A DNA stretch of 63,985 nt, filler included, from Hausera hauseri (Eukaryota): assembly GCA_046269625.1 (NCBI GenBank). It is 11 parts of 11 records of this genome, joined end to end, with 100 filler letters (N's around TTAATTAATTAA, not from the genome) between each part and the next. Parts side by side here need not be neighbours in the genome. Positions count along the whole stretch, not along the records: positions 1 to 4,315 come from JBJURY010639108.1; 10 more parts are not named here. One strand, 5' to 3'. A model generated the notes under the pieces. The model had not been told where the DNA came from and ran no database searches. It worked only from the letters and a program-made list of their open reading frames with translations. Every line of letters starts with the position of its first letter. Within the stretch, counting starts at the first letter, position 1. The translations under genes and the position numbers were made by a program. This document shows positions 1-52,832 of the stretch, piece after piece.

Positions 1-1114
1 GAGACTCCGTTTAAACCTCTATATAAATTAAATTAGAAGACAGACTAAGTTTCCAGGAAGTTTACTCAACATATTAACAAGGTGATAAATGAATTATTGA
101 GGTTATTCTGTGGTAGTTACTGAATGATTGTGTGTCCATAGAATCATTTGTAAAAGGTGAGATTGGATAAAAAATTGATTATCTTATTGACTTTTGATAT
201 ACATAGTTTGCACCATTTAATTGTCAATTGTCTAACCGGGACTTGGGTCATTGATAGTGATTCCACCCTTTATTCATTCAGAACGTTTAGTTCTTGATCT
301 ATTCACTCTACTGAAATGATCGAAGTTCCCATTCTTGCCTTTCATTTATATATATTCGATATTAAACTTACATTAAATCTATCCAACGATATTAATTATA
401 TGTAATAGTATAAGATACTTTATCGAGACAATTGCTGTTTTATCGAGACAATTGCGTCGTTTCTATCCATAACAGTGTAAAGTATTTCATCGAGTTATAT
501 ATATTGTTTCTATCTTATGTATTCTGGATCTTTAACGCATATCCAGCTGTTTTATTATGGTGATAAGAACTCCCCGTATTATCTTTTCATTTATGGATAT
601 ATCTAATACTAAACTTAAACTAAAGCAAATAATGGAAATCAAAAATATCATCCACAATATTAAAGAAAAGGAAGGAATACCAAGACGGTTTGCAGAAAAT
701 GGAAATAGGCCAAAACCCAAACCTGAAGTCCTTAGCTCAATGAAGAATTAGTCATCACCCAGCCTCGACATACCATTGAATCGATATCGATTACCTAATC
801 ATAAATGACATCTTGTAGAAAAAATTCAAGGACTCACAAACCCTTCAGATAAAGAGATGAACAGCATGATGAAGTTTGACTCCACTAAACAAACCGAACT
901 CGTATTTTATTTATATGTTAGGTACCGATTAAGGTCTAAATTGACCCCTGTACCACCAACATATAAACTGGTGCCCCGAGTGAGGAGCACAATGGTTGTA
1001 AGGATCTGGATTTAGGGAATAAAGTATTAAGATAAACCTCTGATTTGTGAATTGTTACTCTATTGCAAAATATATTTAGCACCGTAGTAAATATCTAGTT
1101 TCTCGTAATTTTAG

Positions 1115-1413
1115 GAAACCAAAACGGAACCACACCTTGTGACATATGCTTCGGACCCCTCGGAAGAAGATATGCCTTACTAAGATGCACCCATATAATG
1201 TGCACTCGTTGTGCTGACAATTGGCTGATGAAGAATCAGTCTTGTCCATTTTGTAGACGAAAAACCACCTCTTACCAATGTTGGGGAACCACTGTAGTGG
1301 TGATCCCGGACGAAGAAGAAAGCGAAACAGAGGAAGACGAGGATGTGGTACCAGAAGATCAGCACGATCTGTATGTGTATGGACCTAATAGAATCGTATA
1401 CATGCCAATTTAA
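1115..1413 (+). CDS. C3HC4 RING-finger protein with acidic tail (3' exon, no own start codon)
   Basis: The frame of ORF 1198-1413 extends upstream to give CDIC-FGPLGRRYALLR-CTH-IM-CTRC...CPFC. There is no ATG before the first Cys (in-frame TAG at 1096). Acceptor ttttAG at 1113-1114; AATAAA at 1417-1422. Confidence 0.85.
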
Positions 1414-1576
1414 TGAAATAAACCTTTGAATTTTAGCCTTGATAAGAAATGATAATAAAGTATAGGTAGCCTAATAGAATCAGTAATAATCGACAAGAAA
1501 CAATAAACTAATTATAGTAGTAATAGAAGCGTAAAAAGAATAAATAGAAAGTTAAATGAATTAATATTGATTTTAG

Positions 1577-1812
1577 GATGTGTCATATGCAAAAAATCTC
1601 CGGAAGTTAACAATGGAAGAAAAAACCCATGTCCATTATGTTATCTCGTCGAAAAGATGAAGCATCGGGAGGATCAGTTCGAGTGCGCATACTGCGGGGA
1701 GGAAGTCAATATAAGCATTATGATCATGGACTCAAATTGTTTTCTGGTATGTCCCATCTGCTCCTTATCAGGGAATGACTTAGAAGAGATTGATAGATGG
1801 ATGAATTTGTAA
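1577..1812 (+). CDS. Small Cys-rich zinc-binding protein with four CxxC pairs (3' exon)
   Basis: CVIC, CPLC, CAYC, CPIC. The track start is TTG, not ATG. Acceptor ttttAG at 1575-1576; ATTAAA at 1821-1826. Confidence 0.7.
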
Positions 1813-1999
1813 AATGTTTAATTAAATTGGTTATTGTACTTCATGAAATTCGGTATTACATTTTCGTGTGCTCTGATAAGTGAAATCGAGGATTTGTGAA
1901 CGATTATGATACGATAAGAAGAAGTCGTCTTATTAAGAGAGAATTACGATTATTATTAATAAATATGAAAATACTTGGAATAAATTGTTACCATTTAAG

Positions 2000-2448
2000 G
2001 AAACGGAACCACAAACGAAAGTGAAGATAGGATGGAACCAGAAAAATGCCCTATCTGCCTCGAAGAGATAATGCAAGAAAAAACCACACTCCCATGCAAA
2101 CATAGCTATTGCAGTTCCTGCATTAACATTTGGTTGGGGGAGCACAACAATTGCCCCTGTTGTCGAAGAGACTGTACTTTCTGCTGGGTGTGCTCCAAAT
2201 TAATAGCCGAGGACTTGGCCACCCTATCGTGCAGACATATGTTTTGTCAGTTGTGTATTCTGGAATATTTGGCGTGCTGCCGATTATGCCCCTACTGCTT
2301 GGAGACAGTGGATTTTTACACCACAGAAGGGGTGATTACCTATCTGAATTTCGATGGACAATCCTCTATAGAGTTGACAATTGACGAAGATGACGGCAGT
2401 TGGCCGGAAGCATGGCGAAATCCGCAACCCTTTACAATATTAGATTAA
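2000..2448 (+). CDS. Tandem double C3HC4 RING-finger protein
   Basis: CPIC..CKH..CSSC..CPCC followed by CWVC..CRH..CQLC..CPYC. ATG at 2032; acceptor AG at 1998-1999; AATAAA at 2459-2464. Confidence 0.9.
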
Positions 2449-2500
2449 TTAAATTGTCAATAAAATTATGTGTAACAAATTGTTTATTTATTTTCTTAAG

Positions 2501-2808
2501 GTTTACCCTGTACTATGAATTCATCAACTATTCTGAGTCACGGGTTCCCGGCATTTTATCAGACCGATGAAATAAATGCATATACGATATATAATCCATG
2601 TGGAAATTTTACCCCAGTGGGAGCCCAGTGCACAATCTGCCTAAATGACTATTCCATAGACCCAGTGGAGTTAGTTCCCTGTAGGCATCAGTTTTGTAAG
2701 AAGTGCCTGAGAGAATGGTTCTCTATGAGAGCCTCATGCCCAGTATGCCGTACAAATAACAAACTATTTCGATATAAACATGCTTACTTTACGATAAAAA
2801 ATTTATGA
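2501..2808 (+). CDS. C3HC4 RING-finger protein
   Basis: CTIC..PCRHQFCKKCLREW..CPVCR. ATG at 2515; acceptor ttttcttaAG at 2499-2500; AATAAA at 2808-2813 overlaps the stop. Confidence 0.9.
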
Positions 2809-2843
2809 ATAAAAGTGTTTTGTTTGATTGAGTTACATTTTAG

Positions 2844-4066
2844 CTGAAAGACAAAAAATGAAAAAGGTTCAATTCCAAACTCCCCGATATTGCGAATATA
2901 CCAGACCAATGCAACCCAATACGATACAGTACATTCTATGTTATCAGAATAGACAATTCGGACCAGCATCATTCATTAAAAGAAGAGTAAGCTACTCTAA
3001 AATGACAGTGTCAGATAATTCAATGAGAAACACACAGAATAGGAAAATATCGTTCTTGGAATATCCTAATTTACCTGTTCCGGGAGAATTAGCTCAATCA
3101 TATGCTAATGCAGGATTATTTCGGACCACAACGGGACAGATAAAATGTTTATACTGTCAAGGAGAATTCCAATACGAACAACTAAGAAATAGACCGAAAG
3201 AACAACATAAGAAACTACGTGCCACCTGTCCCTACCTACTAGATGTGGATGTAAGCAATATACCACTCATCGATGTATTTACTAAGAAGCCTGACCTGGA
3301 TCCGGACACTAAGTATGACGAAATAATATCTACACAGATAGTCTATCCAACTGATAATATAGTAGAACAAAATATACAATCGACTTTAGACACAGTACAA
3401 AATAGAAAATTAACTTTTCTAGGAAATAAGAAAATGAGGTATTTAGCCCGACAAGGATTGATATCAATATTCAAGGAAGGAGTACAATATGTTAAATGTA
3501 CAAAATGTTTTAGAGAAACATATTGGTTAGAAAAAATCGATCAGCGATGCCCGGCAGTACTACACACCAATAAATGCGAGTACTCAATACATAAAGTATC
3601 TGATAATAATGCCAAAAAGCAATGTAGAATACAATTTAACACAGGAAAATTATATGAATGTTATCAAGATAGTCCTGTCGCCATATCAGTAATATCAAGA
3701 CACCCTACCAAGCGAGAAAACATATTACAATATATCAAACATCAGACAGAAACTCAGTCCGATTGGTCGCCAAATGTATTCGACCTATGTCAGAATCTGA
3801 ATTTTATTGATCCAGAAAAGGAAAGAGAACCTGAGCAAAATATTCTTGACAATTTCTATCTTCGCGATTTGGAGTGTGTAATCTGTTATACGAATGTGGC
3901 ACAAGTCATCTTCTTACCTTGTGGACACTTGAAAACTTGTGAGAGTTGTTCAAACCAAACGACAAACTGTCCGGTTTGTAGGAGTATCATAGAGAGACGA
4001 GTGACGTATTTTCAGTTTTCAGAAGAAATTAGCGAAATAACTTTGGCAAATTTGGACCTTGACTAA
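2844..4066 (+). CDS. iap: Inhibitor-of-apoptosis-like protein (BIR, degenerate BIR, C-terminal RING), single exon
   Basis: BIR1: RKISF..YP...LAQSYANAG...CLYC-x16-H-x6-C (canonical spacing). BIR2-like: RKLTF...LARQG...CTKC...H...C. IAP-type RING: CVIC...FLPCGH..CESC...CPVCR. Acceptor AG at 2842-2843; AATAAA at 4088-4093. Confidence 0.88.
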
Positions 4067-4140
4067 TAGTTAATGTGAATGTATTGGAATAAATATTACT
4101 TATGAATTTGTTGTATTAAAGTTAAATAAATTTATTGTAG

Positions 4141-4315
4141 AACCTTCGACTATCGACAATATGACCTTAGCTAATCTTGATGACTGGATGGTTCAAGTAA
4201 TGACGATAAAGAATCAATCACCCAAATTAGCATATGAATGGTACAGATTGTATAACAACCCCTTACTCGATAAGATAACTGAATTGGGTTATTCCAAATA
4301 TATAGCGATGATCGC
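4141..4315 (+). CDS. Truncated ORF with possible IAP-type UBA-like segment
   Basis: NNPLLDKITELGYSK resembles the UBA helix1/MGF-loop region. Acceptor AG at 4139-4140; runs into the contig end. Confidence 0.45.
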
Positions 4316-9083: not shown

Positions 9084-10650
9084 GGATGCAACGTTTTTCT
9101 TCTACGTTGATGGGTACTTCTCTCTTTTCACATTCATAGGTTAGCAATACTTCGCCCGTACCTCGACCGAAGACTCCTTCTCTCATGGGAATTATTGGAG
9201 AAGCTAATTCTGGGTTTGCATATATAAGAGCCATTTTAGTTTTCATTATTTCGGTATCCAATTTGCAGTCATTCATTATCATTTTATGATATAATTCCGT
9301 TATTCCAACTTGTCCTTTATCGTAGAAGTAATCGTCTCTACTTTTCAGATAATCTTCAATTCGAACATCCTGCGTTTCCAATTTATAGGTTTTTGCGTTT
9401 ATTTCTGTTTCGGCTACGAAGAACGCTTTATAGTTTGTAGAGAACATTACTACATCGCAACGAGTCATCATTTCTTTTTTTATAAATTTCAGCCCATGTG
9501 GATCTGAGATTAATATAGTAGGTGTAGGGTGTTCTGATACATTTTCGCATGTCCTTGAGTTAGTTTCTGATTTATCCACGTATCGTTTTCCGGTAGTTTC
9601 ATTAAACTTTAGCTCCTTAATTTTGATGAAATTACAGCTTCTTCCAGAGGGAGGTTCCAGTATTATAACCGAACTTCTAAAAGTACGTGTTCCTTCTTGT
9701 AAATGACATTTTTGATTCTCAGTGTATAGCTTAGTGACGCTATGGAACATTACCTTCTGTGATCGCATTTCTGATTCGTAGAAATCCACAACTACTACGT
9801 TTGGCTCTATTCTTTTTCCGGTATCGTATTCTGCTCCATTACAATGTCCGCTATGCATATTTAGTCTTCCAGCCACTACTTTGTATGCTCTGATTATCTT
9901 ACCTGGTTGCATTTCTATTTGCATGCTGTCCCATTGTACCCTTCCGTTCTCTTTGGCTTGTTTGCAGTGCTGACGTTCTAAGTTCATTGGAATTAGTGGG
10001 GTAGTTGGCTTAATTATGGAGGAATGTCCGTGTATTAGGCAGCAATGGAAAATTCTGCGGGATCGTCTCAACATGCACTCCATTCCGTCTAACGATATCA
10101 GTTCTTGTTGTTGATACAGGAAATAACTTTTCTCTCTTGTTTTTAGTTTGTATGGTCTTGCATCCTCGCATATTTCTAGATCCATTAAGGAATATCTCTG
10201 TCCTAATTTAAACTTATCGCAATCATGGACGGTTACAGCGCCTATATGCTTTATTAGCATCATCAAGGTTAGCAAGCTAATCAGCCAGTTTGATTCATTC
10301 TTCCGACTTCCAACGTCTGACGTTGTCAGGCTACGTAACATATCGTCGAGTTTATTGTTGCTTCGTTTGTCTTCTTCTTTGTCAAATAGTCTTGTCCAAT
10401 TTACTTCGCAAGGCATTCTTTTTGCTGCTCTCCGTGCTAAGCTTATAGCCCGATTGATTTCACTCTCTCGATTAGGATTTATTTTGATAGCTAAGTATAG
10501 CAGTACTTTTCTCAATTCTTCATTCGTGTTTTCTACCATAATCTTTTCTATTACTGTCTCGTCGGTTAAGTTACTTTTTGATATTTTGAAACGTGAACTT
10601 CTCATCATTTTGGCTGCATCGAAAATTATCTTTTCTTTGTCATCCAGCAC
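9084..10650 (-). CDS. env: Chuvirus-like envelope glycoprotein of an LTR element (3'-truncated by contig end), preceded by ~120 aa of non-glycoprotein sequence
   Basis: Internal signal-like segment WLISLLTLMMLIKHIGA, then VHDC..YSLMDLEIC, LYQ..C..R..FHC..HGHSSI, GHCNGAEY and LYHKMIMNDCKL..NP...GEVLLTYEC. This Cys/motif pattern matches chuvirus-type G proteins as I recall them. Confidence 0.8.
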
Positions 10651-10656
10651 ATCTCC

Positions 10657-11385
10657 TCAAAAACTAGAATAATTCACAATTCGTATTAAATTTTTCATTA
10701 ACTCGCTTAATTCCTCATTCTCGGTGCTAAGGGTTGGAATCGACATCTGCCTCAGTTCCTTAATTAACTCTGCATTGTGATCCACTTCACCTCGCACCTT
10801 TCTAGGTCTGCCTACTGGGCGTTTCGGTCTTTGACCTTTAGTGGTTGCTTCGCTTAGTGGTACTAAATTTATGTCGTATTGTTCTTTATCTACGTCCGTT
10901 TTTATATACTCAAAATATAGTGCGGCGTCTCGGACTCCAATGATTTGTCCTACGCATTGTTCTGTTTTTGCTTTACGTGTAGCTTCTTCTTTTGTCGGTT
11001 CATTAGCTATTATTACCACTATGCTATTTGTTTCGTCCGGAATAATCCCGACGTCTATTAATTGTTTCAAGTCATCTAATATTCTACCTCTAAAATAAAA
11101 TCTGTGGTTTAACTCGTTTGTTTCACCATTATTTACCAGCCATTCTCTTACGTCCCTTACGTAGGAATATGTAGTCAGCTTGCACCCCTTTTCGTCCATC
11201 CATTCGGATGATACCATCACCTTTATCGTCACTTTGGGTCTAGCCCTCAAGATTTTAGCGTACTTCCTTATCAAAAGTTTCGGCACCGTACTATGGATCG
11301 TGTTTTCGCTCGATAATTTAGTTAAAGTTGGAATAAGTTGTCGTAATTTATTCTCAGTAATATTTACGTTAATTAACTCAATCAA
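10657..11385 (-). CDS. Ubiquitin-like domain plus AT-hook region, in the same frame as the glycoprotein ORF and separated by one TGA
   Basis: VTIKV...VRDVREWL...[20 protein letters not shown] resembles ubiquitin [29 protein letters not shown] is an AT-hook. The junction reads SSF*GDVLDDKEK. Confidence 0.65.
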   Translation of the reverse strand: [242 protein letters not shown]

Positions 11386-12341
11386 TCCTTTTCAGTTAGC
11401 GCTGAATCCAGTAGATTCTCCACATTGAAACTCCTGTCCTGCTGACATGTTTCTATTTCGTTTAGTTGTACTGGAGTCGTAACTTCCCCGGCGAGTATCT
11501 CGTCAAAGTATGCATCCCATTCGGGTTCGTTTCCGGTATCCGGCAGTCGATAATCCACTAAAGCTGCATGGGCTCTTTGAATGTTTTCCCGAATTTCCTT
11601 TAATCTAGGTTGTATTTCTTTCATTTGCGTAGTTCGGAAGCCTACTCCATTCCAACAGGCATACTGAATCATTTTCAGTAATTCACCGAATTCGTCAGAG
11701 TCGATCAGTCCTTTTTGGTGACAATCCGTTAATTCAAGAATCACATCCTTTTGCCATCTTTGTACAAATTCTCGTTTATTCTTAATCTCAGATTCGGTGG
11801 AAGCATATCTATTTCGATAGACTCCGAGCTCTTTTGTTATTTCCTCTAACCTTGTCTCTCTTTCTTTTATCTTGATACATGTTTCTTCCACTTTCTGTAT
11901 CTTGAGCATCAACTGCTTCATCTGCTCATCGCTGATTTCTGCCATTTCTACTAATAAATAGGCTAACTCATGCAGCTCATTTATAACCTTTGAATCAGGG
12001 TCAATTGCATCCGATAATTTCTTTACAAACTTGTGTTCCTGAAAGCTGAAATGTGGGTCGTTTCCGATTTCTATCAACTTGGTATGGAAATTTTGGTCTG
12101 ATCCGGCCATCCATTCTTGAGGTTTGTGTAAAAACCTTATTGTATCCGTTAACGTATCTCGATATCCTGGACAAATGTCCAAGATTTCAATGTCTGGTAC
12201 AGAAATTTCGTCAATTGGTTTCCCGGTTAAATATGGAATCCCTTCTAGTCGGACAATCCTTAACTTTGAATTTACATCGTAAATCATATTCCGTTTCTCC
12301 GTAAAGTTCGTCTTTTCAATCAAGTAGTAGATTTCCTCCAT
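11382..12341 (-). CDS. Helical/coiled-coil protein segment of unknown function (probably a frameshifted part of one long ORF with 12320-12886 and 10657-11385)
   Basis: 319-aa ORF with an E/K/L-rich heptad region; abuts same-strand ORFs on both sides; no RT, RNase H or integrase motifs. Confidence 0.55.
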   Translation of the reverse strand: MEEIYYLIEKTNFTEKRNMIYDVNSKLRIVRLEGIPYLTGKPIDEISVPDIEILDICPGYRDTLTDTIRFLHKPQEWMAGSDQNFHTKLIEIGNDPHFSFQEHKFVKKLSDAIDPDSKVINELHELAYLLVEMAEISDEQMKQLMLKIQKVEETCIKIKERETRLEEITKELGVYRNRYASTESEIKNKREFVQRWQKDVILELTDCHQKGLIDSDEFGELLKMIQYACWNGVGFRTTQMKEIQPRLKEIRENIQRAHAALVDYRLPDTGNEPEWDAYFDEILAGEVTTPVQLNEIETCQQDRSFNVENLLDSALTEKD

Positions 12342-13789
12342 AATCGACGCTTCCCGTTCCTTTTCATCAATTTTAGTCGTCGTATCGCTTCAAATTGAGT
12401 ACGGATGTCTATTTCTATCCGCAACGTGGCTAAATCGTGTGCACTTTCCTCTAGTTGCTTCTTCACCGTTGGCTCACTTTGCGGAAATTCTGTTTTACGA
12501 TCTTCTACCAATTTAGTTAGTCGCGTTACTAATTCGGACCATTCCTACAGTTGATTTGCGATTACAGGTTTCGCCATTATGGCTTTATCTAGCATCTTAT
12601 AGGCATCTTCTAACTCATCGTCTGGTCCTTTTAGGAAATTCTTAACTCGACCGTCATAACTAAACTCGACCTTATACTCGTCCAATTCTACGATACAAGC
12701 TTTTACTGTATATTGAGTATCCTCGTTATTTGGGAACATAATTCGATTTCTCAAATTATAAACCTGTGCTCGTATTTCGTTTTCTATTTTCATACGATCC
12801 CCTAAATTCGTATACTGTCTAGATACGGCGAACGTGAGTTTAATCATCTCCATTAAGGGAGGAATATCTACTAGGTCTATACCCAATATTTATAAGTCGA
12901 TATTACTTTGATTACTGACCGGTTTTCTTTGAGCCGGTGGATCAATACAAGGCAAATTTCATTCATCATACGTTCTAAACTACGAGCTGCTCGTTTTAAT
13001 TTCGGGTTTGTTTCTCAATTTCCTTAATTCATTGGCGTTTTTCCATGAATGACGGACTTTCCACTTCTTGAGATCGAAATCATCAGTATTCATTGTTTCT
13101 TTCTCACTAGTAGGAAGTGGGCAGATCTCGTTAATTTCATTGATTTCCTCTATAGGCTCCGCTACTCCGACAGGTGTGTGTGAACCAATTTCTGGTGTAT
13201 TCAAACTGTGGTCCGTGTCGCTTCCTACAACGACATTCGGGTTTTCCATTTCTTCAATTTTCTCTCTAGTTATTTTAGAGCGTGAACGACTTCTTCCTTT
13301 CGTTTTTAGAAGGGCTACGGCCTCTATTTTTCGTAATTTTAAGTATTAATGGCTCCATAAATTCCTTTTCTGCTGTATCAGCTGTATCATCCTCAGTAAG
13401 CTTAACTACTTTTTCAACTGTAAACTCAGGCTCTGCGTCTAAGTCGACTGTCGTCGATGTGCCTGGTTTATCAGATGGTTTATTGCTTGTCGGAACACTC
13501 TTTTTTCGTGTTATATCGATTCGTTTGGGTGCTATTGCGTGTTCTTATTCAGTTTCTGGTTCTGCTAAGCCATGGTATACTTCTAATAATCTCAGCTCAT
13601 CTCCGTATTCTCTTCTAGCCATCACAATTTGTAAGTTAGTGGTATCCGGCTGAGCATCTAAGAATTTTCTCAAATCCTGTATATCGATGATAGTGCCTGT
13701 ATCCTAACGAATACCATACTTTGCTTCTAAATTCTCACTGATTCTAATCATACTAGTCTTATTTGGCTCAGTAAATGAGACGCTACGTG

Positions 13790-14930
13790 GATTTGGGCAT
13801 GACCTTGAAATGTGTCCAAATTCCCATTCCTGCCGACTCTTTATCGACCGTCTTCGTTCGTCGGTGACTTAGATTTATTTATACACTTATTATACTGGTT
13901 TGACAAACTTTGTGCATTATCAGTGTTTCGTCTATTATCGTTATTTCGGCTATCACCGTTTTGGTTTGAGTAGTTTGAGCCTTTAAAATTTCCTCTATTT
14001 CTATCCCAGTTAGAGTCTGATCTGTTCGTATTTGTATAATTACTACCTCTGCTATTTCTGTAACCGCCACTATTATTCCTATTCCCATAATTTCTGTTAC
14101 CCGAAAGTCGTCTGTCGTCTCTTCCAAAGTTATCATTGCGATTTCTATCATTCCGGTCATTCCGATCATTATTCCAGTCGTTTCTATCATTATATCTGGC
14201 GTATCTATCTAGCGCCATTTCTAAATCTTGAGCTAGTCGTAACGTTCCTTCAAAATTCTCAGGTCTAGCCAAAATCAATTCTTTAACTAAGTCTCGCGAC
14301 CAAATACCATTTATTAGTTGCGTCGTCATCATCACATCTAAATCTGGTGGTGAGGCCTTCTCCTCGGCGTCACGTTCCGCATCTGTCTTAGCTTTAGCTA
14401 CGTTGGCTATCCTTAATGTAATAATATAACTATTAGCAAGCTTCTTCAACGCAAATGCGAACTGGGTTACCGATTCACCCTTTTGCTGTACTCTGTTCTG
14501 AAATACCATAAGTTTTTGTTGCGGCGTTACTGTCGGCAACAGTTTGCGATTTAATGCTCCTACCAGGGAGGATCAAGATTTCTTCTTGTCATTAGTGAGT
14601 TCACTATAGGCATCAGCGGCTAAGTTTTTCAAATACAACGACAATCGCTTAATCATCACTTCAGGAGTAAGACTACACCTTTTGCGGTCAATTTATAAGT
14701 CCTCAAGAACTCATTAAGTCCGTCTGGATCTCCGTCATATGCCGGCAAGTTTAGGGAATCGAACGTGAAAATATCCAGTTTCTGCGCTACTGCTGGATTA
14801 CCTGCTGCAATATTATTTATGTCTTTTGGCTCTAAATTTGCTTTATTTACTTTAGGTTTCTCAAGTGGAATTTTAAACTGTTTATTTTGCCTGACAACGT
14901 CTAATTTGTTCTATTCTCGGAATTTGATTG
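13790..14930 (-). pseudogene. gag: Ty3/Gypsy-like gag, disrupted
   Basis: LPAYDGDP..EFL..RLSLYLKNLAADAY; MHR-like FQNRVQQKGESVTQFAFALKKLA; QLINGI...PENFEGTLRLAQDLE; N/R/D-rich tail; zinc-knuckle remnant EFGHISRSCP near 13795-13825. Contains stops and frameshifts. Confidence 0.8.
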
Positions 14931-15183
14931 TTTATCTACCTTTTCTGTTTCTCTATATATATTTCGACGTGTCTCACGTACAGATGAATTGTCTTTTAAT
15001 ATATTATTTATTCCTGACCTATGAATGTTTGTTCTCAATTAAGTTTTGCTTACTTATCCCCGTCAAAATAGCCTATGTACCCAAATTTTAAATTTCGATT
15101 CTGAATAAATCAAACCACTTGATGTAATGGCGCTGTTCGCCGGTATGTAATTATTTAAATCTAATAAGTAAAGTCTAGCGAGG

Positions 15184-15200
15184 TCCTGCTAGGGTCGTCA
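15184..15200 (-). promoter_or_regulatory. Probable primer-binding site (tRNA-Arg-like)
   Basis: Minus strand reads ...TATAACA-TT-TGACGACCCTAGCAGGA, resembling a TGGCGACC..GCAGGA PBS directly after an LTR-terminal CA, upstream of gag. Confidence 0.55.
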
Positions 15201-15202
15201 AA

Positions 15203-15699
15203 TGTTATATATTTTGGTGGCCCTAACCGTCTCCCACTATGTAACAGTAAGTTTTACTTGAAGTTATTTTGCTATGCGGTTCGGTCTACCGTTATCGCGT
15301 AGACAGAATGTACCTTAACGATTTTGAAATCTCTGTGCGGGTATATGCGTGCGGTCCTGTGCTAATGGTTTCAATATATCTCTCTTAACTATGTAGTTTA
15401 CGTATAGATTTTGACCTTAAGGACGTCTAATCACCATTAAGGGGCAAAGGAAAACTATAAGGAATTTAAATACAACAGATTATATTAATAAAACAATTAC
15501 CAATTGATGCTACACGGTATCGATCAAATATTCACTTTATAAAGTCTTTAAAATTCGCTAAATCGGCGTCTTGGTTCTGAACAATCTTCTAAACTCTGCA
15601 ATTTCAACACAATCGTACACACTCAATTAGACTTCAAAAATTTCTGACTCTATCTCGATTTTGCCAGCCTTATATAGCTCTACCAGCTCAGTTAATTTC
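15203..15699 (-). mobile_element. Partial 5' LTR of the gag/glycoprotein element
   Basis: Ends in CA next to the PBS; TATA-like CTATATAAG on the minus strand near 15670-15678; truncated by the contig end. Confidence 0.45.
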
Positions 15700-16885: not shown

Positions 16886-16925
16886 TTAAATCTCAATTAA
16901 TTCTACTTATTTTCAAATTTCCCAG

Positions 16926-17476
16926 AATGTATGGAATTCCGAGTAATCCGCAGAGTCGTATACACACTTACGCCCTGCTTGCACATGCTATATTCATATT
17001 GTATAGATACATCCCAATCCCAGGCAAACCCTATGCCATATTGCCCAATTTGTAAATATGAAATTATGTATTGCATCCAGCATAATGCATATCCATCTGA
17101 TGCTGACCAATCCTTACTGGATGCCAAAACCTTTGAGATTATCAAACCTACAGACCACATTACATATTGCTATACCTGGGATGTGTCAACCCCTTTTTCC
17201 ATCCTATATTTTCAGCTTCACACTTGTTGTTCATGTCACAAACCCATTAAAACAATCTACAAATTTAGTTCCTGTAATGCCGAATATTGTTCCCATTGTT
17301 ACCAAATGGAATCTCACCATCGACATCTGATATACAGCATATGTTATTTTTATCCACAGTTCATATATTATTACTTCCACCACCCTACAAGAGCTCTCCT
17401 TACTATTACTAACACGTTAATTCCTCAAATTACTTCCAACAAGATACTTCCGATTAGAGCAACAATCGTCAGCTAG
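16926..17476 (+). CDS. Degenerate RING/Cys-rich protein
   Basis: LTPCLHMLYSYC...YCPIC and CCSC...CNAEYCSHC; acceptor ttcccAG at 16924-16925. Confidence 0.5.
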
Positions 17477-21330: not shown

Positions 21331-22138
21331 ATGACATATCTGAGGCATTTTCTTTTTAATTCTGCTGCATCAACTGGCCGCTGTCTTTGGCTTTTTGATG
21401 GAGCCGGTGCGTTTGATGTGGCCGTGCCTGATGTAGCTACGCCTGATGCTGCTGCGCCTGATGCTGCTGCTTATGATGCTGCTACGCATCATGCGGTCGC
21501 GCGTTTCAATTTTTTAATATGCATTGAGCTGCTTCACCAGATCCAGCGGCATAATGCGAGACAGAATACTGTGAAGCATCAAACTGCGAAGCACATGCAT
21601 CAAAATTATCTTGCTCATTAAAGATGGCCTTTTTTGACTTTGATGCGAAGTGACTCAAATGATGTTTGTGATCATAACAGAACTGTATGTAATCTGCGCG
21701 GCATACCGTCTCACATCCTGGGCATATATAATAGAGGATCCTATTGAATTTGTATCCATAATAGCTCCTCATGGCATTATGACANNNNNNNNNNNNNNNN
21801 NNNNNNNNNNNNNNNNNNNNNNNNNNNNTTAATTAATTAANNNNNNNNNNNNNNNNNNNNNNNNNNNNNNNNNNNNNNNNNNNNTATTTTGACATATTTT
21901 AGGTTTGTCAAAAGAGAGGGAATTGAAGAGATTTTATTGATGATTAACTAAATGTTACATGTCGTTTTTAAGTTTAACTTTCTGATCATAGCAGGTTACA
22001 AGGGCAAATAGAAGAGAAATGGGTGAATGTGCCTGTGAGAAAAAAAAAATGTTATCTGAGAGAAAACTAATGATCTTTTTTTTTGTGTAAGCAGTTTTTT
22101 TTGTCTCAACAGCTTGATGTTTCCTTGGTCTTTGCTGT

Positions 22139-23446
22139 TTGGACGATCGAGGCCGCCCAGAGGACAACGTGGGAGGCGTTGGGGGCAAGCACCCGTCAGA
22201 TGGGGGTGCAGGACCTTTGGTCATCGTGTACCTCGTCGTAGGTGCCATGGTTCTGCTGGAGAACGCCTTCTCCCTGACACCAGGACAGGTGCTGATTAAG
22301 GTGGAACAAGAGAGTTTCAGCCTCTCCTGGGCAAGAAACAACAAAGTGAACAGAACACCAGGACATTTTTCATGTCCGGTCCGAAAGCAAATCCTGATGA
22401 AAGAAATAAAATGGCAAGCGGAGATGTGGACTAGTACGGAGTCCATATTACAAAATGTGACAAAAGCATTGAACTGGACAGTATGTACTTTGCAGGTTTT
22501 ATATGCACAGCTGCAAAAAGAACGGTTCCACAGGGTGGTGACGTCATCTAACCATCATGAGTGGCGTAAGCTCTGGAACATAACAAACGATCAATGGTTA
22601 ACGTTATCACCTGAACACACTATATGTGATGACAAAATGTGTAAAGGACATTGGACACAACATGTGGTAGAATGTAATACTACTGTATGTAGGTACCATG
22701 TTCTCCCTGTGATAACCATTCAAGGTTATTGGTTTCTACATGTGAAAGGTAATTGGTTTGAGCCACAGACAAACCTAACCTATGATTTAGACTTATGCGA
22801 GACAGCTGATAAAGGGGTGGTATGTATGCTACAAACAGGTCATGTTAACCCATGCTTAATTAAAGACGAAGTACTGTGTGATTGGACTTTTGAATCAGCT
22901 AGAGACATGCTATGGCAAATAGGCCCACACACTTTGTGCGTAGCAACAATAAAAAGTCACCCACAGTTACCATTTGTACCTTTCTCTGGATGTGTGTATG
23001 ATGTACACTTATGGAATTGGAACAATCAGACTTATAGGTTGACTAAATACAGCACCAAGGAACGTCTTTCAGAAGTGCAATGGCAGGTATTGCAGTTTCC
23101 TTGGCAGATTTCCCTAGATCAGTTCAAGTGCGCATTGAACGGATCTATGGAGCTAAAACGACTGATTGAGTCACATCAAAAGAATGTGTCCGACTTAACA
23201 GTGTCAACATACATCGCCCAGGGACAGGTCCTGCATGCGGCTAAACTCATTGAACAATCATCCGCACATCACTGGTGGGACATATTTTCAGGTATGTCCT
23301 CAACGGCGCGGAAGTATGTAGTCCCTCCTTTGCTTGCGCTTATTTTGTGTGTTGCAATATTAACTTTATGTAATTTAGGCACGTGTTTTTATATCAGGAG
23401 AGTTAAAAACAGGATTAACTGGAAAATTTATAATTCGGCCACTTAA
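22139..23446 (+). CDS. env: Envelope-like glycoprotein (ERV-S/snakehead-retrovirus-like), short
   Basis: N-terminal hydrophobic LVIVYLVVGAMVLL; Cys/Trp-rich ectodomain with N-glycosylation sequons; HHWWDIFSGMSSTA before the TM segment PLLALILCVAILTLCNLG. Track start is TTG; first ATG (GCCATGG) is near 22247. Confidence 0.8.
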   Translation: MDDRGRPEDNVGGVGGKHPSDGGAGPLVIVYLVVGAMVLLENAFSLTPGQVLIKVEQESFSLSWARNNKVNRTPGHFSCPVRKQILMKEIKWQAEMWTSTESILQNVTKALNWTVCTLQVLYAQLQKERFHRVVTSSNHHEWRKLWNITNDQWLTLSPEHTICDDKMCKGHWTQHVVECNTTVCRYHVLPVITIQGYWFLHVKGNWFEPQTNLTYDLDLCETADKGVVCMLQTGHVNPCLIKDEVLCDWTFESARDMLWQIGPHTLCVATIKSHPQLPFVPFSGCVYDVHLWNWNNQTYRLTKYSTKERLSEVQWQVLQFPWQISLDQFKCALNGSMELKRLIESHQKNVSDLTVSTYIAQGQVLHAAKLIEQSSAHHWWDIFSGMSSTARKYVVPPLLALILCVAILTLCNLGTCFYIRRVKNRINWKIYNSAT

Positions 23447-23447
23447 T

Positions 23448-23693
23448 ATGAAAGTACGAATTTATATTACTGACGGCCCTTATGGTCTTGAAAAAACAGA
23501 AATTACTGTAGAACCTGAAATACATCCAGACACATTGGAGGTTGAGCATTTTGCTCATGGATGGTATTATTTTAGGCAAACAACTTATGAGACTCGAATA
23601 GATTTTTTGGGTGCGTTCGCGACAGAACTTCAGCACGTAGACGTAGCAAACCGCTTAGAGTTTAAACTAACTGGGTGGCATTTTCAAAATTAG
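23448..23693 (+). CDS. 81-aa putative retroviral accessory protein between env and the PPT
   Basis: Starts 1 nt after the env stop (TAA-T-ATG) and ends just before the PPT; intact; no family recognised. Confidence 0.6.
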   Translation: MKVRIYITDGPYGLEKTEITVEPEIHPDTLEVEHFAHGWYYFRQTTYETRIDFLGAFATELQHVDVANRLEFKLTGWHFQN

Positions 23694-23713
23694 CCAGAAA
23701 ACCAAGGGTGGAA

Positions 23714-24365
23714 TGAATTGATAAACACGTTTTTCAATATATATGTGTTAGTTTTCTGACTATATTTCAAATGCTTTTGCTTAAATGTGCATGTGTCAGG
23801 TTTTATTCCAGCTGCCCTGGCCTTGACAGGTTTTTTTTCTCTTTCCCTGCCACTTAGGGAGTGTTTTGGGGGAGCTGAGAGGGGGGGGGAGAATGCAGCA
23901 GAAACTCTTCACACGAGATAGCAGCTTTTGGAAAAAGAAAACATGTTTTTGAGCCATCTCCTGAATGCCTGGGAGCAAAACTTGGCCCGTCTTGCGCCTC
24001 ACGCAATTCTGAGAGTTGGCGTAAGCATGCTTTTTTTTGGTAAGGGTGGGGGGAGCTGAGGTATAAAAAACACATGTTCAGTTTGAAAAAACGGAGTCTT
24101 TTGGAACCTTTCGATCGGGGTGTCTAAAACTGTTAATGTGGACCTCATTTCAACTGTGTGGCTCTCCGGTTGGTGTCAAAAGGTGAGGTTATTGTTATGC
24201 ATTAACTGATGTGAGCTATGTACATGTGTGCAAATGCTTTTGCTGGCTTTTATCTGTGGCGGAAATAAATGACACTATCATTTCTAGCAGATTAAGTCTT
24301 GTGTCCTGTCATCATTGTGCCGATTCTTTCCGATCCTGTTATTATTAAAAGAATTTCACAGAACA
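23714..24365 (+). mobile_element. LTR
   Basis: Begins TG after PPT-like GAAAACCAAGGGTGGAA; TATAAAA at 24062-24068; AATAAA at 24264-24269; ends CA (24358-24365, exact end uncertain) before the PBS. Confidence 0.8.
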
Positions 24366-24370
24366 TTAAT

Positions 24371-24388
24371 TGGCGTCACGAACAGGAT
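24371..24388 (+). promoter_or_regulatory. Primer-binding site, tRNA-Ser(CGA)
   Basis: TGGCGTCACGAACAGGAT is the complement of the vertebrate tRNA-Ser(CGA) 3' end ...ATCCTGTTCGTGACGCCA; it lies 18 nt before the gag ATG. Confidence 0.85.
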
Positions 24389-24406
24389 TAAAGAAAGAAC
24401 TGCACA

Positions 24407-26233
24407 ATGCCTTTTTTTAAGAAAAAAGAACAGACGGGGCAGTCGGATGAGAAACCGAGTGAAGTTGTGCCTGGTTGGGGGCAGTCTCCCTATCAGTTGA
24501 TAGCGTTGTGTTTGAGAGGTGCGGGCCGGCAGCCTGAACCTTGGGACGATTCTCGAGACGTGAACAGTCCAGAGGATGTTTTAACAGTGCTACAGCAGAT
24601 TGAAGTAGCAAAGAAAACACCAGTGTCTGGCTTGCGACGCCGTATGTGGGTATGTGCGACCGCATGGAAAAAGTTACACGAAGAGTGTCAGAAAAATCAA
24701 ACACAAGCTCTGCAGGATAAAAATGCGCTCCAGGAAGCGCAAAGTGCCTGCTTGTTGAACAAACAGCATATTCAGCTCCTGTCCTCACAACTCGAAAGGA
24801 TGAGTAAAGTGGCGGAGGGTGCAGTTGAGCAAGTGTCTCGATTAAAACGAGAAAAATTCAGGAAAAAGAAACGAGATGTTTCACCGAAACGAGTCAGGGC
24901 GTTTGTTGCTCAGCTAGATGCTGGATGGGATCCGTCGAGGTGGGACGGAAACATCTGGGGCGAAGAGGAAGGTGAGGAAATGGATGATGGCTGGGCAGAG
25001 GAAGAGCATGCGCCTGTTGTGACCACTAAGAAAAATGTGAAACCTGTTAGAAGACGGAGGAAAGAACAGAATGTGTTGCCAGATATGAGGCAGGAAAGGA
25101 GAGATGTGAATAACGTACCTATTGTGGATATGGAAGGAAATCCAATATGGGACATGGTCCCGCAGCAACAGCCTCAGGCAGAGTTAAAAGTAATAACAGA
25201 GGATTATACTCAAGAAGAAGTTGCTTATTTGTCTAAAAGATATAAGCAGTTGCCGGGTGAGCCTCTTGATGCTTGGCTGGTGAGGCTGCTGGACGAGGGA
25301 GCTGTCCAGGTGGAGGTAGATGTGGGAGATGGAATGTCTTTTGCTGGTTTGTCCACTAACCCAAGCATAAATACAAACTACCGTGCAGAAATCCGGGCTA
25401 TGGCTCCTAACACCGCAAACAACTTGTTTCAGGTCTATGCTGATTCTGTTTTACAAATGTATCCGGGAACTTCTGACTGGCCTGAGATAAAAGGCAATTG
25501 GTTAACATTGAAAGAGTGTAATGCTCTATTGACACGCATGTGTATGAGGGAAGCTGTGTCTCTGCGGGCAGGGCATGACTACCTGGCACTGGAAGTCCCC
25601 AAATCGGTGAGAGACCACATTATTCAGACCGCACCTGTTCATTATCGATCCGCTCTGCTAGCTGTGATAATGGGAGCACCTCAGGTTCCTGCTTTTGAAA
25701 TGAGAGAGCGAATCATGGAGCTGAGTACGCTCGGCGAGTGGGGCCCAGACAGATCAGAACAGCGAGAAAGGTTTCAGAGTCAACCACAGGCTCGCGGGCC
25801 CAGCAGGGACGGTGGTAATAAACAGGGACCACCGCGAGCTGCCTATTGGCGAGCTTTGATACAATCAGGAGTGGCCCCAAAAGACATCGATGGTCTGCCT
25901 ACTGAAGAGTTAAAGGCCAGATGTCAGAGGAAAGGGCTCCAGGTGCATTGTGCTGGGTTTGACATGACTGGGCTCACGCGAGCTCTCTCAGATGTGCTCA
26001 GATCCGCTTCAGCTCCGGTCGCTCCTAAATCTGAGCAGCAGTGGGTGTTTCACCGACAGGGAAGCAGGCAGAAAGATGGTGATGAGTCAGAGGAGGGAGA
26101 AGAATCCTCCACTGATGAGGTGCAGCAGGTCAGAGTTGTAAAGCAGAAGCATAAGGGGAAGAAAAACAAACCTAAGAAAGAACACAGAAACAGACTTTAC
26201 CCTGACCTTGATGACTTGTTGAGCTTCGAATAG
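24407..26233 (+). CDS. gag: Class III (ERV-L/ERV-S-like) Gag, intact 608 aa
   Basis: PGW..SPYQLIA N-terminus, coiled coil, WDP..WDGNIW, and DYTQEEVAYLSKRYKQLPGEPLDAWLVRLLDEGA (ERV-L-type capsid motif); no CCHC knuckle. Confidence 0.85.
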   Translation: MPFFKKKEQTGQSDEKPSEVVPGWGQSPYQLIALCLRGAGRQPEPWDDSRDVNSPEDVLTVLQQIEVAKKTPVSGLRRRMWVCATAWKKLHEECQKNQTQALQDKNALQEAQSACLLNKQHIQLLSSQLERMSKVAEGAVEQVSRLKREKFRKKKRDVSPKRVRAFVAQLDAGWDPSRWDGNIWGEEEGEEMDDGWAEEEHAPVVTTKKNVKPVRRRRKEQNVLPDMRQERRDVNNVPIVDMEGNPIWDMVPQQQPQAELKVITEDYTQEEVAYLSKRYKQLPGEPLDAWLVRLLDEGAVQVEVDVGDGMSFAGLSTNPSINTNYRAEIRAMAPNTANNLFQVYADSVLQMYPGTSDWPEIKGNWLTLKECNALLTRMCMREAVSLRAGHDYLALEVPKSVRDHIIQTAPVHYRSALLAVIMGAPQVPAFEMRERIMELSTLGEWGPDRSEQRERFQSQPQARGPSRDGGNKQGPPRAAYWRALIQSGVAPKDIDGLPTEELKARCQRKGLQVHCAGFDMTGLTRALSDVLRSASAPVAPKSEQQWVFHRQGSRQKDGDESEEGEESSTDEVQQVRVVKQKHKGKKNKPKKEHRNRLYPDLDDLLSFE

Positions 26234-26460
26234 GGAGCAGGCAGAGCCCCGGAAATCAGGATTGCTAAAAATAGAAATGTGCAGAAAGTGTTGGCCCTTG
26301 TAGACACCGGGGCGGAAGCCACACTTATTCATGGCAATCCGAATAAAATAAAAGGAGCAGTGGTTCCCCTCTCAGGCTTGGGAGGAGACATGATTTTTGG
26401 AAAAACTTTGACTTTAAAATAGATAACATGCCTGTGAAGACATTTTATGTACTAGTGACC
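26234..26460 (+). pseudogene. pro: Protease fragment in frame after the gag amber stop; rest of pol absent
   Basis: TAG-GGA... reads GAGRAPEIRIAKNRNVQKVLALVDTGAEATLIHGNP...LSGLGG to a TAG at 26420-26422. A shifted frame continues KIDNMPVKTFYVLV, then AT-rich non-coding DNA follows. Confidence 0.85.
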
Positions 26461-26746
26461 CATCCTTGTAAATATGCAAATCAGATGTTCACAATGAAAT
26501 GTTTAGAAATATCCTGTTGGGAAAATAGATGCTAAATCTTTATAATAGATGTCAAAATCCCTTTTGTTTTATTTTGACATATTTTAGGTTTGTCAAAAGA
26601 GAGGGAATTGAAGAGATTTTATTGATGATTAACTAAATGTTACATGNNNNNNNNNNNNNNNNNNNNNNNNNNNNNNNNNNNNNNNNNNNNTTAATTAATT
26701 AANNNNNNNNNNNNNNNNNNNNNNNNNNNNNNNNNNNNNNNNNNNN

Positions 26747-29700
26747 GTGATATCATGAATTTAATCACGTGACTTCGCGAGACCAATAACGTGACATCAT
26801 GTGATAACATGTGTTTATTCCCCTGACATCACGAGATCAATCACGTTACATCACGTTATATCATGAATTTAATCACTTGACATCGCGAGATCAATCGCGT
26901 AACATCATGTGATATAATGCATTTAATCACGTGACATCGCGAGATCAATCACGTGATATCACGTTATATCATGAATTTAATCACTTGACATCGCGAGATC
27001 AATCACGTGACATCATGTGATATCATGAATTTAATCACGTGACTTCGCGAGACCAATAACGTGACATCATGTGATAACATGTGTTTATTCCCCAGACTTC
27101 ACGAGAGAAAATCACGATACATCACGTTATATCATGAATTTAATCACTTGACATAGCGAGACCAATCACGTTACATCATGTGATAACATGTGTTTATTCC
27201 CCTGACATCACGAGGTCAATCGCATGACATCACGTGATATCATGAGATTGACAACGTGACATCGCGAGATCTATCACGTGACATCATGTGACCAATCACG
27301 TGATATCATGTGATATCACGAGTTAAATCACTTGTTATCGCGAAGTCAATCACGTGACATCATGTGACTAATCACGTGACATCTCTTGATATCATGAGTT
27401 CAATAACGTGACATCGAGAAATCAATCATGTGACGTCATCTGACCAATCCCGTGACATCACGTGATATCACAGGTTCAATCACGCGACTTTACTGGACAA
27501 TCGCATGATATCACGTGATCTCATGAGTTTAATCTCGTGAAATCGCGAGATCAATCACGGAACATCATGTGACCAATCACGTGACATCACGTGACATTAT
27601 GACTTTAATCACGTGACATCGCGAGGTCAGACACGTGACATCGTGTGACTATTCACGTGACATCTCTTGCTATCATGAGTTTAATCACGTTACATCGCGA
27701 GATCAATCACGTGACATCATGTGACCACTCTCGTGACATCACATGATATCGCAGGTACAATCGCGCGACATTACTGCACCAATCACGTGATATCACGTGA
27801 TCTCATGAGTTTAATCACGTGACATCGCGAGATCAATCACGTGACATCATGTGACTAATCACGTGACATCACGTGATATCATGAGTTTAATCACGTGACT
27901 TCGCGAGATCAAATACGTGACATCATGTGACCAATCACGTGATATCACGTGATCTCATGAGTTTAATCACATGACATCGCGATATTAATCACGTGACATC
28001 ATGTAACCAATCACATGACATCACTTGATATCATGAGTTTAATGACGTGACATCGCGAGATCAATCACGTAACATCATGTGACCAATCACGTGACATCAC
28101 GTGATATTATGTGATTATTCACGTGACTTCACGAAAGCAATCACGTGACTTCATCTGACCAATCACGTGACATCACGGAATATGATCAATTTGATCACGT
28201 GTCATTGTGATATCAATCACGTAACATCATTTGACCAATCATGTGACATTACGTGATATCATGAGTTAGTCACGTGATATCGCGAGATCAATCACGTGAC
28301 ATCATGTGATATCATGAATTTAATCACTTGACATCACTAGATCAATCACGTGACATCACGTGACCAATCACGTGACGTCACGTGATATCATGAGTTAGTA
28401 ACTTGACATCGCGAGAACAATCACGTGACATCATGTGACCAATCACGTGACATCACGTGATATCATGAATTAAATCACGTTACGTCGCGAGATCAATCAC
28501 GTGACAACATGTGATATCATGAAATTAATCACTTGACATCACGAGATCAATCACGTAACATCATCTGATTAATCACGTGATATCACGGAATATGATCAGT
28601 TTGATCAGGTCTCATTGCGATATCAATCACGTGACATCATGTGGCCAATCACGTGACATCACGTGATATCATGAATTTAATCACGTGACTTCGCGAGATC
28701 AATCACGTGACATCATGTGACCAATCACGTAATATCACCTGATCTCACGAATTTAATCACGTTTCATCGCGAGTTCAATCACGTGACATCATGTGACCAA
28801 TCTCGTTAGCTCACGTTATATCGCGGTTTCAATCATGTGACATTACTGGACCAATCACGAGACATCACTTGATATCATAAATTTATTCACGTGTCGTCGC
28901 GAGATCAATCACGTGACATCATGTGACCAATCTCGTGACATTACGTGATATCATGTGTTTATTCACGTGACTTCACGAGAGCAATCACGTTACATCACGT
29001 GATAACATGAGATTAATCACGTGACATCACGAGATCAATCACGTGACATCATGTGACCAATCATGTGACATCACATTATATCATGTGTTTATTCACGTGA
29101 CTTCACGAGAGCAATCACGTGACATCACGTGATATCATGAGTTTAGTAACGTGACATCGCGGGATCAATCACGTGACATCATCTGACCAATCACGTGACG
29201 TCACGTGATATCATGAGTTAGTCACGTAACATCGCGAGATCAATTATGTGACATCATGTGACCAATCTCGTTACATCACGTGATATCGCGGGTTCAATCA
29301 CGTGACATCATGTGAACAATCACGTGACATCACATGATATCATGTGTTTATTCAAGTGACTTCACGAGAGAAATTACGTTACATCACCTGATAACATGAG
29401 ATTAATCACGTGACATCACGAGGTCAATCACGTGACGTTACGGGACAAATCACGTGACGTCATGTGATATCATGAGTTTAATTACGTGACATCGCGAGAT
29501 CAATCACGTGAAATCAGGTTATATCATGAATTTAATCACGTGACATGGCGAGACCAATCACGTGACATCATGTGATAACATGTGTGTATTCCCCTGACAT
29601 CACGAGATCAATCACGTGACATCACGTGATATCAAGAGTTTATTCACGTGACTTTACGGAAGCAATCAACTTACATCACTTGATAATATGAGATTAATCA

Positions 29701-32700: not shown

Positions 32701-33317
32701 TGATATCATGAATTTAATTACGTGACTTCAGGAGAGCAATCACGTGACATCATGTGACCAATCACGTGACATCACTTGATATCATGAATTTAATCACTTT
32801 ACATCGCGACATCAATCAGGTGACATCATGTGATATCATAAATTTAGTCACGTGACATCGCGAGACCAATAACGTGACATCATGTGATAACATATGTTTA
32901 TTCCCCTGACATCAAGAGATCAATCACGTGACAACATGTGATATCATGAATTTAATCACTTGACATCGCTAGATCAATCACGTGACATCACGTGACCAAT
33001 CACGTGACGTAACGTGATATCATGACTTAGTAACTTGACATCGCATGAACAATCACGTGACATCATGTGAATAATCACGTGACATCACGTGATATCATGA
33101 ATTAAATCACGTGACGTCGCGAGATCAATCACGTGACATCATGTGACCAATCACGTAACATCACTTGGTATCATGAGTTTAATCACGTGACATCGCGAGA
33201 TCAATCACGTGATATCATGTGACCAATCACGTGACGTCAGGTGATATCGCGGGTTCAATCACGTGACATTACTGGACCAATCACGTGACATCATGTGATA
33301 TTATGAGTTTAGTAACG
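26747..33317. repeat. Satellite built from palindromic ATCACGTGA(C/T) monomers
   Basis: Whole contig. Recurring blocks ATCACGTGAC-ATCACGTGAT-ATCATGAGTTTA (32 bp), ATCACGTGAC-ATCGCGAGATCA (22 bp) and ATCACGTGAC-ATCATGTGACCA (22 bp); no ORF of 60 aa or more in the track. Confidence 0.97.
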
Positions 33318-45375: not shown

Positions 45376-45607
45376 CTGTGGAAAGAGGTAAAACAATAAG
45401 AGGTTAACAAACCTGGATAATCTAATATTTTCATGTAGTCAGGTATATTTTCCCTATGTAAAATATGCTGCATTCATATGATGAACGTCTTTATATACAT
45501 ATACACACATGGTGAACACACATCATGTGCCAAACTTAGTATTTCAACCTTCTTGCATATGTGGTTCCCCACTGGTCCGGTACTGTCCAATCACGTTAAT
45601 TTTGATG

Positions 45608-52716: not shown

Positions 52717-52832
52717 CCTGTGACAGTTATAAACACAAACTTAATAAAAACAGTTATTGAAGTGTAACGTCACATAAGATGTTGCTGTCCTTAAAACATG
52801 AAAAAGGTTAGAGTTTACAACCCCAGCATGTT

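Follow-up and report, generated by a model that had tools for sequence, protein, structure and literature searches.

Background

Long terminal repeat (LTR) retroelements are usually drawn with gag and pol and at most one or two extra open reading frames (ORFs), and poly(A) sites lying inside such an element should cut its genomic RNA. Burro and GYPSM1, giant gypsy elements of planarians, are high-copy LTR elements that carry BIR, RING-type and other domains of apoptosis and ubiquitin pathways, according to the available part of the report (PMC6431247), which also describes an upstream accessory ORF in an element of Dugesia tigrina. Here we analyse an array of six putative units, each comprising a splice acceptor and an ORF, with a poly(A) signal behind each of the five complete ORFs, in a contig of Hausera hauseri (JBJURY010639108.1, assembly GCA_046269625.1). 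The whole stretch of DNA analysed, hereafter the window, measures 63,985 nucleotides (nt) and consists of 11 unrelated contigs joined by N spacers; the array is confined to the contig at positions 1-4315, which stops inside unit 6.

Complex retroviruses reuse one ATG for several accessory proteins, and the leader peptide of the snakehead retrovirus is said to be a parallel. In mod(mdg4), lola and the adenovirus major late unit, a single 5' part is combined with many different 3' exons, which have poly(A) sites of their own. The former two are host genes with a long shared domain and the latter belongs to a DNA virus with a non-coding leader, whereas the array appears to lie in a retroelement with a putative leader of one or two codons. 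In the Drosophila MDG1 group (412, mdg1, Stalker), gag is preceded by two ORFs, reported as unspliced in the accessible portion of the source (10.1101/2025.03.14.642691), and by a poly(A) site. The first exon of HTLV-1 pX lies in the 5' LTR and is spliced to several acceptors (PMC3185783, available sections). Bdelloid LTR elements carry enzymatic ORF3s as non-env cargo that was captured and is said to be expressed as a rule from spliced messages, and the word RING is absent from the main text as available (PMC5408684).

On balance we consider it probable that six phase-1 acceptors at the 5' end of an LTR retroelement share one short coding leader, which is spliced to one or another of them, a proposal made from the DNA sequence. 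The layout, reading phases, domains, primer site, repetition and codon bias on which it draws were observed directly; the array is real and probably functional. This layout was not found described in the literature searched, outside which most subscription journals lie; Daidara likewise gave no literature match.

In its working the array resembles a cross between the accessory region of a complex retrovirus and a set of alternative last exons, and it departs in a defining feature from Burro, from the MDG1 group and from operons. Like Burro, it combines a high-copy LTR-type element with BIR and RING-type cargo. Compared by description and not by sequence, however, the Burro domains lie mostly inside one polyprotein of ~4900-5100 amino acids, whereas the array has separate ORFs, each with its acceptor, stop and poly(A) signal; Burro is defined by a BIR inside a giant gag-env-pol polyprotein, and the IAP of the array is a stand-alone ORF. 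The MDG1 sORF1 is helix-turn-helix-like and sORF2 membrane/FAST-like, both with their own starts, while the array has at least six ORFs of RING, IAP or Cys-rich type, two of them start-less. The accessory ORFs of complex retroviruses lie 3' of env and share the poly(A) site of the 3' LTR, in contrast to ORFs placed right behind the primer site with their own poly(A) signals. Bdelloid elements have a single ORF3 besides gag and pol, of the GDSL or DEDDy type. These comparisons hold for the available parts of the sources cited above.

Methods

Contigs of four (X1 to X4) of five public runs were aligned to the contig; they are of unrecorded kind and have no bearing on expression. X1 is possibly the window's own source or near it and is thus not independent support, and X3 and X4 contribute small shares. 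From the resulting variation, 40 of 652 variant rows and 12 of 36 indel rows were examined, as chosen by the tool. Splice acceptors were scored blindly, with approximate weights, in order to remove the choice by eye. The tRNA-Met primer-binding site used for matching was the one printed in the available part of PMC1084362. The homologue search for unit 5 covered protein lengths of 226-721 amino acids.

Results and discussion

The six units and their predicted splice acceptors

The array is made up of the following units, all on the plus strand:

1113..1422, +, unit 1: acceptor 1113-14, RING ORF, stop 1411-13, AATAAA at 1417; no ATG before the RING
1575..1826, +, unit 2: acceptor 1575-76, Cys-rich ORF, stop 1810-12, ATTAAA at 1821; no ATG before codon 27
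1998..2464, +, unit 3: acceptor 1998-99, double-RING ORF, stop 2446-48, AATAAA at 2459; own ATG at 2032
2499..2813, +, unit 4: acceptor 2499-2500, RING ORF, stop 2806-08, AATAAA at 2808; own ATG at 2515
2842..4093, +, unit 5: acceptor 2842-43, IAP-type ORF (BIR and C-terminal RING), stop 4064-66, AATAAA at 4088; own ATG at 2858
4139..4315, +, unit 6: acceptor 4139-40, ORF truncated where the contig ends; own ATG at 4161

The initial annotation had proposed these six AG acceptors, all in phase 1, and each of the five complete ORFs closely followed by a poly(A) hexamer. All six AGs are present, and at each of them phase 1 alone opens a long frame (98, 77, 148, 101, 406 and at least 57 amino acids behind acceptors 1 to 6, against 0-27 in the other phases). 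An AATAAA or ATTAAA lies at most 25 nt from the stop in all five complete ORFs; from base composition, the chance of such a hexamer is 0.17 per 35 nt, and 1.3e-4 for five. In-frame stops, which had been claimed at or just before the acceptor of three ORFs, were found at the acceptor in units 3 and 4 and within 16 nt of it in units 1 and 5, and this claim has to be corrected.

The coincidence of phases had been put at about 0.4%, with acceptors picked by eye. That choice stood up to blind scoring, in which the same AG ranked top in all six gaps (48 AGs scored). Among 5000 shuffles of the gaps the best AGs fell in one common phase in 0.3%, and a common phase together with open reading into all six ORFs never occurred. 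Taken singly, acceptors 1, 2 and 4 beat the shuffles (p 0.014-0.034), and acceptors 3, 5 and 6 do not (p 0.22-0.29). What did not stand is the independence of the six units, since units 1, 3 and 4 are paralogues and the homologue of unit 6 resembles the C-terminus of unit 5. The phases are therefore partly inherited, and counting three lineages puts the match at only about 1 in 9. The shared-leader model itself predicts that whole cassettes of acceptor, ORF and poly(A) signal are duplicated.

The next acceptor lies 34-177 nt past each poly(A) hexamer. For units 4 to 6 this distance is 34-51 nt, so that cleavage and splicing would compete there for one T-rich tract; three of the gaps are only ~35-75 nt long. 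Six joints among the X1 to X4 contigs had GT..AG ends in none of the six cases, which, given the kind of contigs, says nothing of expression.

An 18-nt repeat (89%) lies directly upstream of acceptors 2 and 6, at 1548-1565 and 4118-4135, and could be a branch-point motif or a trace of common ancestry. A seventh unit (AG 817-818, ORF 809-1015) was rejected: its acceptor ranks 31 of 258, frame-breaking indels occur at 936-938, and it crosses the primer site described below.

Translation and variation among copies

As had been claimed, units 1 and 2 are start-less: their first in-frame ATGs are at codons 28 and 27, beyond the first Cys, and three out-of-frame ATGs in unit 1 and five in unit 2 come before them. 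Variation among the copies bears on whether such frames are read. Twenty-five of the 40 variants fall in ORFs, and 17 of these are synonymous, against ~30% expected. In unit 1 all nine variants examined are at third codon positions (8 synonymous), including one at 1182, upstream of the first Met; in unit 5, 7 of 11 are synonymous. The ten distinct indel sites in the rows examined are all outside the ORFs, which fill 79% of the span. Transitions among copies are 5-6 times as frequent as transversions.

Unit 1 is thus probably translated and needs an upstream start, because of the third-position bias, the indels kept outside ORFs and the want of its own ATG. For this unit the codon-position bias bears out the earlier claim that an upstream coding start is needed, and no observation argues more strongly for an upstream coding exon than the apparent translation of a start-less unit. 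Upstream of acceptor 2 the open frame is interrupted by an insertion at 1549, present in about half of the X1 depth, and the stretch before this acceptor is consequently not coding. The start of unit 5 shifts between copies, which supports the leader reading: a variant at 2849 (X1, X2) keeps the frame of acceptor 5 and places Met three codons earlier, and the homologue P0001 begins at a third position. The Met of unit 6, in contrast, is conserved, so that the starts taken together give a mixed picture.

The encoded proteins

The description of the array as six RING/IAP ORFs holds for units 1, 3 and 4 (RING) and unit 5 (BIR and RING) on Pfam evidence, and for unit 6 by way of its full-length homologue; it goes too far for unit 2, which is Cys-rich and shows no recognisable RING. 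Pfam matches were zf-C3HC4_3 in unit 1 (E 1.4e-9), two RING stretches in unit 3 (E 1.1e-14) and zf-RING_2 in unit 4 (E 6.3e-13); nothing was found at E 0.01 in units 2 and 6. In the protein database no homologue was found for unit 3 (E 1e-5) or for unit 1 (E 10).

Unit 5, a stand-alone ORF of 406 amino acids, has a BIR at 26.9 bits, only 4 bits above the cutoff of 22.9, and a RING at E 4.8e-14 (Pfam). Its top PDB matches are cIAP, XIAP and NAIP, and its nearest Atlas clusters are IAPs. Two homologues were found (P0001 and P0002; 384 and 252 amino acids), of which P0002, an IAP, has 56% identity. The predicted structure was unusable (predicted local distance difference test score, pLDDT, 34). 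A second, degenerate BIR is visible by eye only.

Unit 2 has four CxxC pairs. Its best Pfam matches are at E 0.07-0.2 (zf-C3HC4_3 E 0.1, RING_ZNF598 E 0.2), under the cutoffs; no common family was found in the Atlas, and a fold search gave no match at E 0.001 (query model pLDDT 57).

The homologues of unit 6, P0003 and P0005, are proteins of 161 amino acids with a C-terminal RING and 43-45% identity. A gag identity for this unit was ruled out, the homologue being a RING protein, and P0004 was set aside as a chance match. P0002, of the unit 5 type, and P0005, of the unit 6 type, are each on a contig of 3474 nt; judging by this equal length only, they are probably on the same contig, which would make units 5 and 6 neighbours in a diverged relative as well.

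The carrier of the array

Two features point to the nature of the carrier:

969..986, +, tRNA-Met primer-binding site, the complement of the last 18 nt at the tRNA 3' end; 16 of 18 match
950..961, +, presumed 3' end of a 5' LTR; CA at 960-961, 7 nt before the primer site

The next best place for the Met primer site on the contig matches at 12 of 18, and the chance of the match is ~0.01 once 60 tRNA types are taken into account. Positions 969-986 gave neither a tRNA gene nor an Rfam match, and the match to tRNA ends at 18 nt. The gap of 7 nt between LTR end and primer site is longer than usual.

From ~930 on, the contig belongs to a highly repeated family in the public runs. Contigs at 85-100% likeness number 3153 in X1, 694 in X2, 52 in X3 and 98 in X4, and it is these many diverged contigs that indicate a repeated family, the summed depth being no copy number. 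Summed depth in X1 is 22-64 before 864, then ~400-23000, with a peak of ~10000 in the bin 865-1008, which holds the primer site, and ~20000 at the 3' end. The tRNA-Met primer site and the highly repeated family together make an LTR retroelement the most likely carrier, and the contig likely comprises the last part of a 5' LTR with cargo behind it. The suggestion that the array is cargo of a virus or giant transposon is in this way upheld as to a mobile element and narrowed to an LTR-type retroelement.

The contig shares no sequence with the other ten contigs of the window (blastn, tblastn), and no related locus was found among the viral or metagenome contigs searched. The single match to the primer-site pattern (L001) resembles a bacterial tRNA gene by eye and was dropped. 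A mini-LTR of 46 nt at 916-961 has TG..CA ends but is too short. In the presumed LTR, a 17-nt exact direct repeat (419-455, 779-793) and four DRE-like ATCGA motifs suggest a promoter. This part of the contig also has a 39-codon ORF from ATG 632 (632-751) and a possible exon of 40 nt (117-156) ending at the strongest donor (157).

The putative leader and the proposed mechanism

Within 1-1113, five donors have an in-frame ATG in phase 1. Two of them end in T, which would give a stop in units 1-3 and 6. The pair of ATG 915 and donor 922 is the nearest of the five, the only intact one close to the array, and has the joint best score, shared with ATG 517 and donor 560. The features of this region are:

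915..921, +, candidate shared leader in phase 1 (ATG, a further codon and a single base), lying within the presumed 5' LTR, before the primer site
922..927, +, candidate 5' splice donor of the ATG 915 leader; without splicing the frame reaches a stop after 5 codons
992..1003, +, ATG in a favourable context, two codons and a GTAAGG donor (998); phase 0, mismatched to the six acceptors
1018..1023, +, extra AATAAA, just past the primer site and donor 998

The ATG 915 leader would give Met-Leu, then Gly, Ala or Glu at the junction. The indel variants at 936-938 fall within the candidate intron from 922, and the AG at 920-921 ranks 6 of 258 when scored as an acceptor. Another possibility is that the leader is situated before the first base of the contig. 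The idea of a coding middle exon from 922 was rejected on account of a stop or indels. Flatworm-type spliced leaders end in ATG; such a leader was discarded, as it would be in phase 0.

Provided that Met comes immediately before the junction Gly, units 1-4 have starts that fit the N-myristoylation pattern in four of four cases. With a background of 155/851 (0.18 per site) this corresponds to p 0.001, or 0.03 with paralogues counted once. The fit favours a leader of Met plus G, and the 915 candidate is not one. If the true leader were only Met and one G, units 1-4 would begin with Met-Gly and form a panel of membrane-anchored ligases.

In the mechanism that we propose, transcription would begin in the 5' LTR, and a leader, for which ATG 915 and donor 922 are the best candidates, would supply the start codon plus a single base. 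Choice of an acceptor would then set the terminal exon and activate the poly(A) signal behind it; such coupling of acceptor and poly(A) site in terminal exons is established knowledge. From each short mRNA one protein would be made, either a RING protein or the IAP. With a donor upstream of the primer site, these mRNAs would be missing that site and could not be reverse transcribed, and a rarer read-through RNA would serve as genome and as gag/pol message. Judging only by their domain families, the proteins may act as ubiquitin ligases and as an apoptosis inhibitor, and would protect the element in the host cell.

A bolder proposal, which we put forward tentatively and with some doubt, is that of an LTR lineage with a modular accessory operon before gag. 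A micro-exon in the 5' LTR would furnish at least six interchangeable, poly(A)-bearing terminal exons with a start codon plus a single base, ligases would have been added by cassette duplication, and the accessory mRNAs would stay outside reverse transcription. If this were true, the region before gag would hold at least six accessory genes, all apparently under selection and all with a separate poly(A) signal; this would amount to complex-virus-like gene regulation in an animal retroelement and offer a simple route for cargo growth. It would also provide a testable transposon with a panel of ubiquitin ligases and an IAP, and the available part of the Burro report proposes a host-tinkering role and leaves it unconfirmed (PMC6431247).

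Alternative explanations

Several observations speak against a shared coding leader in an LTR element. Donor 922 is moderate, with a score of -0.2, and is outscored by donors 157, 980 and 998, all of them without a phase-1 ATG; the context of ATG 915 is weak, with four ATGs within 110 nt upstream, and the ATG in the best context (992) gives only frames of 5-27 amino acids with the six acceptors. In-frame phase-0 AGs, with lower scores, lie upstream of units 1, 2 and 6 (1097, 1550, 4120). The variants of unit 3 are non-synonymous in three of four cases, none of those examined falls in units 2 or 6, and a loose end in X3 at 1823 lacks the ATTAAA of unit 2. Units 3-6 each have their own ATG 5-11 codons past the acceptor, with no other ATG before it, and the Met of unit 6 is at the same position in its homologues. 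Concerning the carrier, no gag, pol or second LTR was found on contig 1-4315, the start of the LTR was not found, and positions 1-864 are rare in the runs, which is odd for a typical LTR and means that the LTR reading needs a subfamily-specific LTR.

Some of these points would be accounted for if the acceptors were used with a non-coding leader, either cis-spliced from the LTR or supplied in trans as a host spliced leader in operon style. Units 3-6 would then use their own ATGs, and units 1 and 2 would be truncated, decaying or otherwise started. Besides the clean first ATGs and the conserved Met of unit 6, this explanation draws on the best donor after 157, at 980, which has no phase-1 ATG, and on the distances of 34-177 nt between poly(A) signals and acceptors, a spacing that resembles that of operons. 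It leaves unexplained, however, the one common phase and the open reading from every acceptor, and it agrees poorly with the codon-position bias of unit 1, at 1182 too, and with a unit 5 Met that moves between copies. A spliced-leader operon in particular needs its own start after each acceptor, and units 1 and 2 have none. We consider a non-coding leader unlikely.

We find it improbable that the array is not LTR cargo at all but belongs to a host gene, as its alternative last exons, or to an integrated DNA virus or DNA transposon, with the match to the primer site due to chance or to a neighbouring insertion. The missing gag, pol and second LTR and the low depth over 1-864 would fit this explanation, the strong donor at 157 could mark the end of an exon situated upstream, and the p value of the primer site is only ~0.01 after correction. 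The primer site nevertheless coincides with the depth peak and has the exact length of a tRNA primer, including the complement of CCA, with no tRNA body; thousands of diverged contigs and intron-less ORFs also argue for an LTR carrier, and viral contigs gave no relative.

Least probable is the absence of splicing, with unspliced RNAs ending at internal poly(A) sites as in MDG1, or small promoters in the gaps, scanning or reinitiation, and T-rich AGs that are downstream poly(A) elements: the MDG1 sORF1 and sORF2 upstream of gag are unspliced with a poly(A) site between in the available part of that source (10.1101/2025.03.14.642691), and acceptors 3, 5 and 6 are singly no better than shuffles, but units 1 and 2 lack an ATG before their Cys motifs and have three and five out-of-frame ATGs, respectively, ahead of the first in-frame one, three gaps measure only ~35-75 nt, and scanning through six ORFs seems implausible.

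Other contigs of the window

Features reminiscent of mobile elements were seen elsewhere in the window. On the minus strand of 9084-15699, gag-like, coiled-coil and ubiquitin-like-looking stretches were seen by eye, without Pfam support, followed by a mononegavirus-type fusion glycoprotein (Pfam E 7.7e-25); the order is that of the Burro polyprotein, broken by stops, and there is no sequence link to the contig of the array. The contig at 15800-21784 has on its plus strand an exonuclease-like ORF seen by eye and a weak RING-like ORF at 16901-17476 (Pfam E 0.004) behind a T-rich AG at ~16924-16925, and on its minus strand an aspartic protease and broken pieces of DNA polymerase B; it is possibly another cargo-bearing element. 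At 21885-26646, env-like and gag-like ORFs and a protease motif, retrovirus-like by eye, had no Pfam match.

Short-unit satellite-like DNA with high CpG (observed/expected 1.69) and no ORF of 95 amino acids occupies 26747-33317. An intron-less CDK-like protein kinase ORF (Pfam E 4.2e-58) lies in AT-rich DNA at 36828-37838, a Twist-like bHLH at 44917-45438 (minus strand), and HECT and SAP ORFs at 50497-52449 (minus strand). A gypsy-type reverse transcriptase, RNase H and integrase are found at 52812-55791 (plus strand), and polymerase-B-like fragments were seen by eye at 58934-63985.

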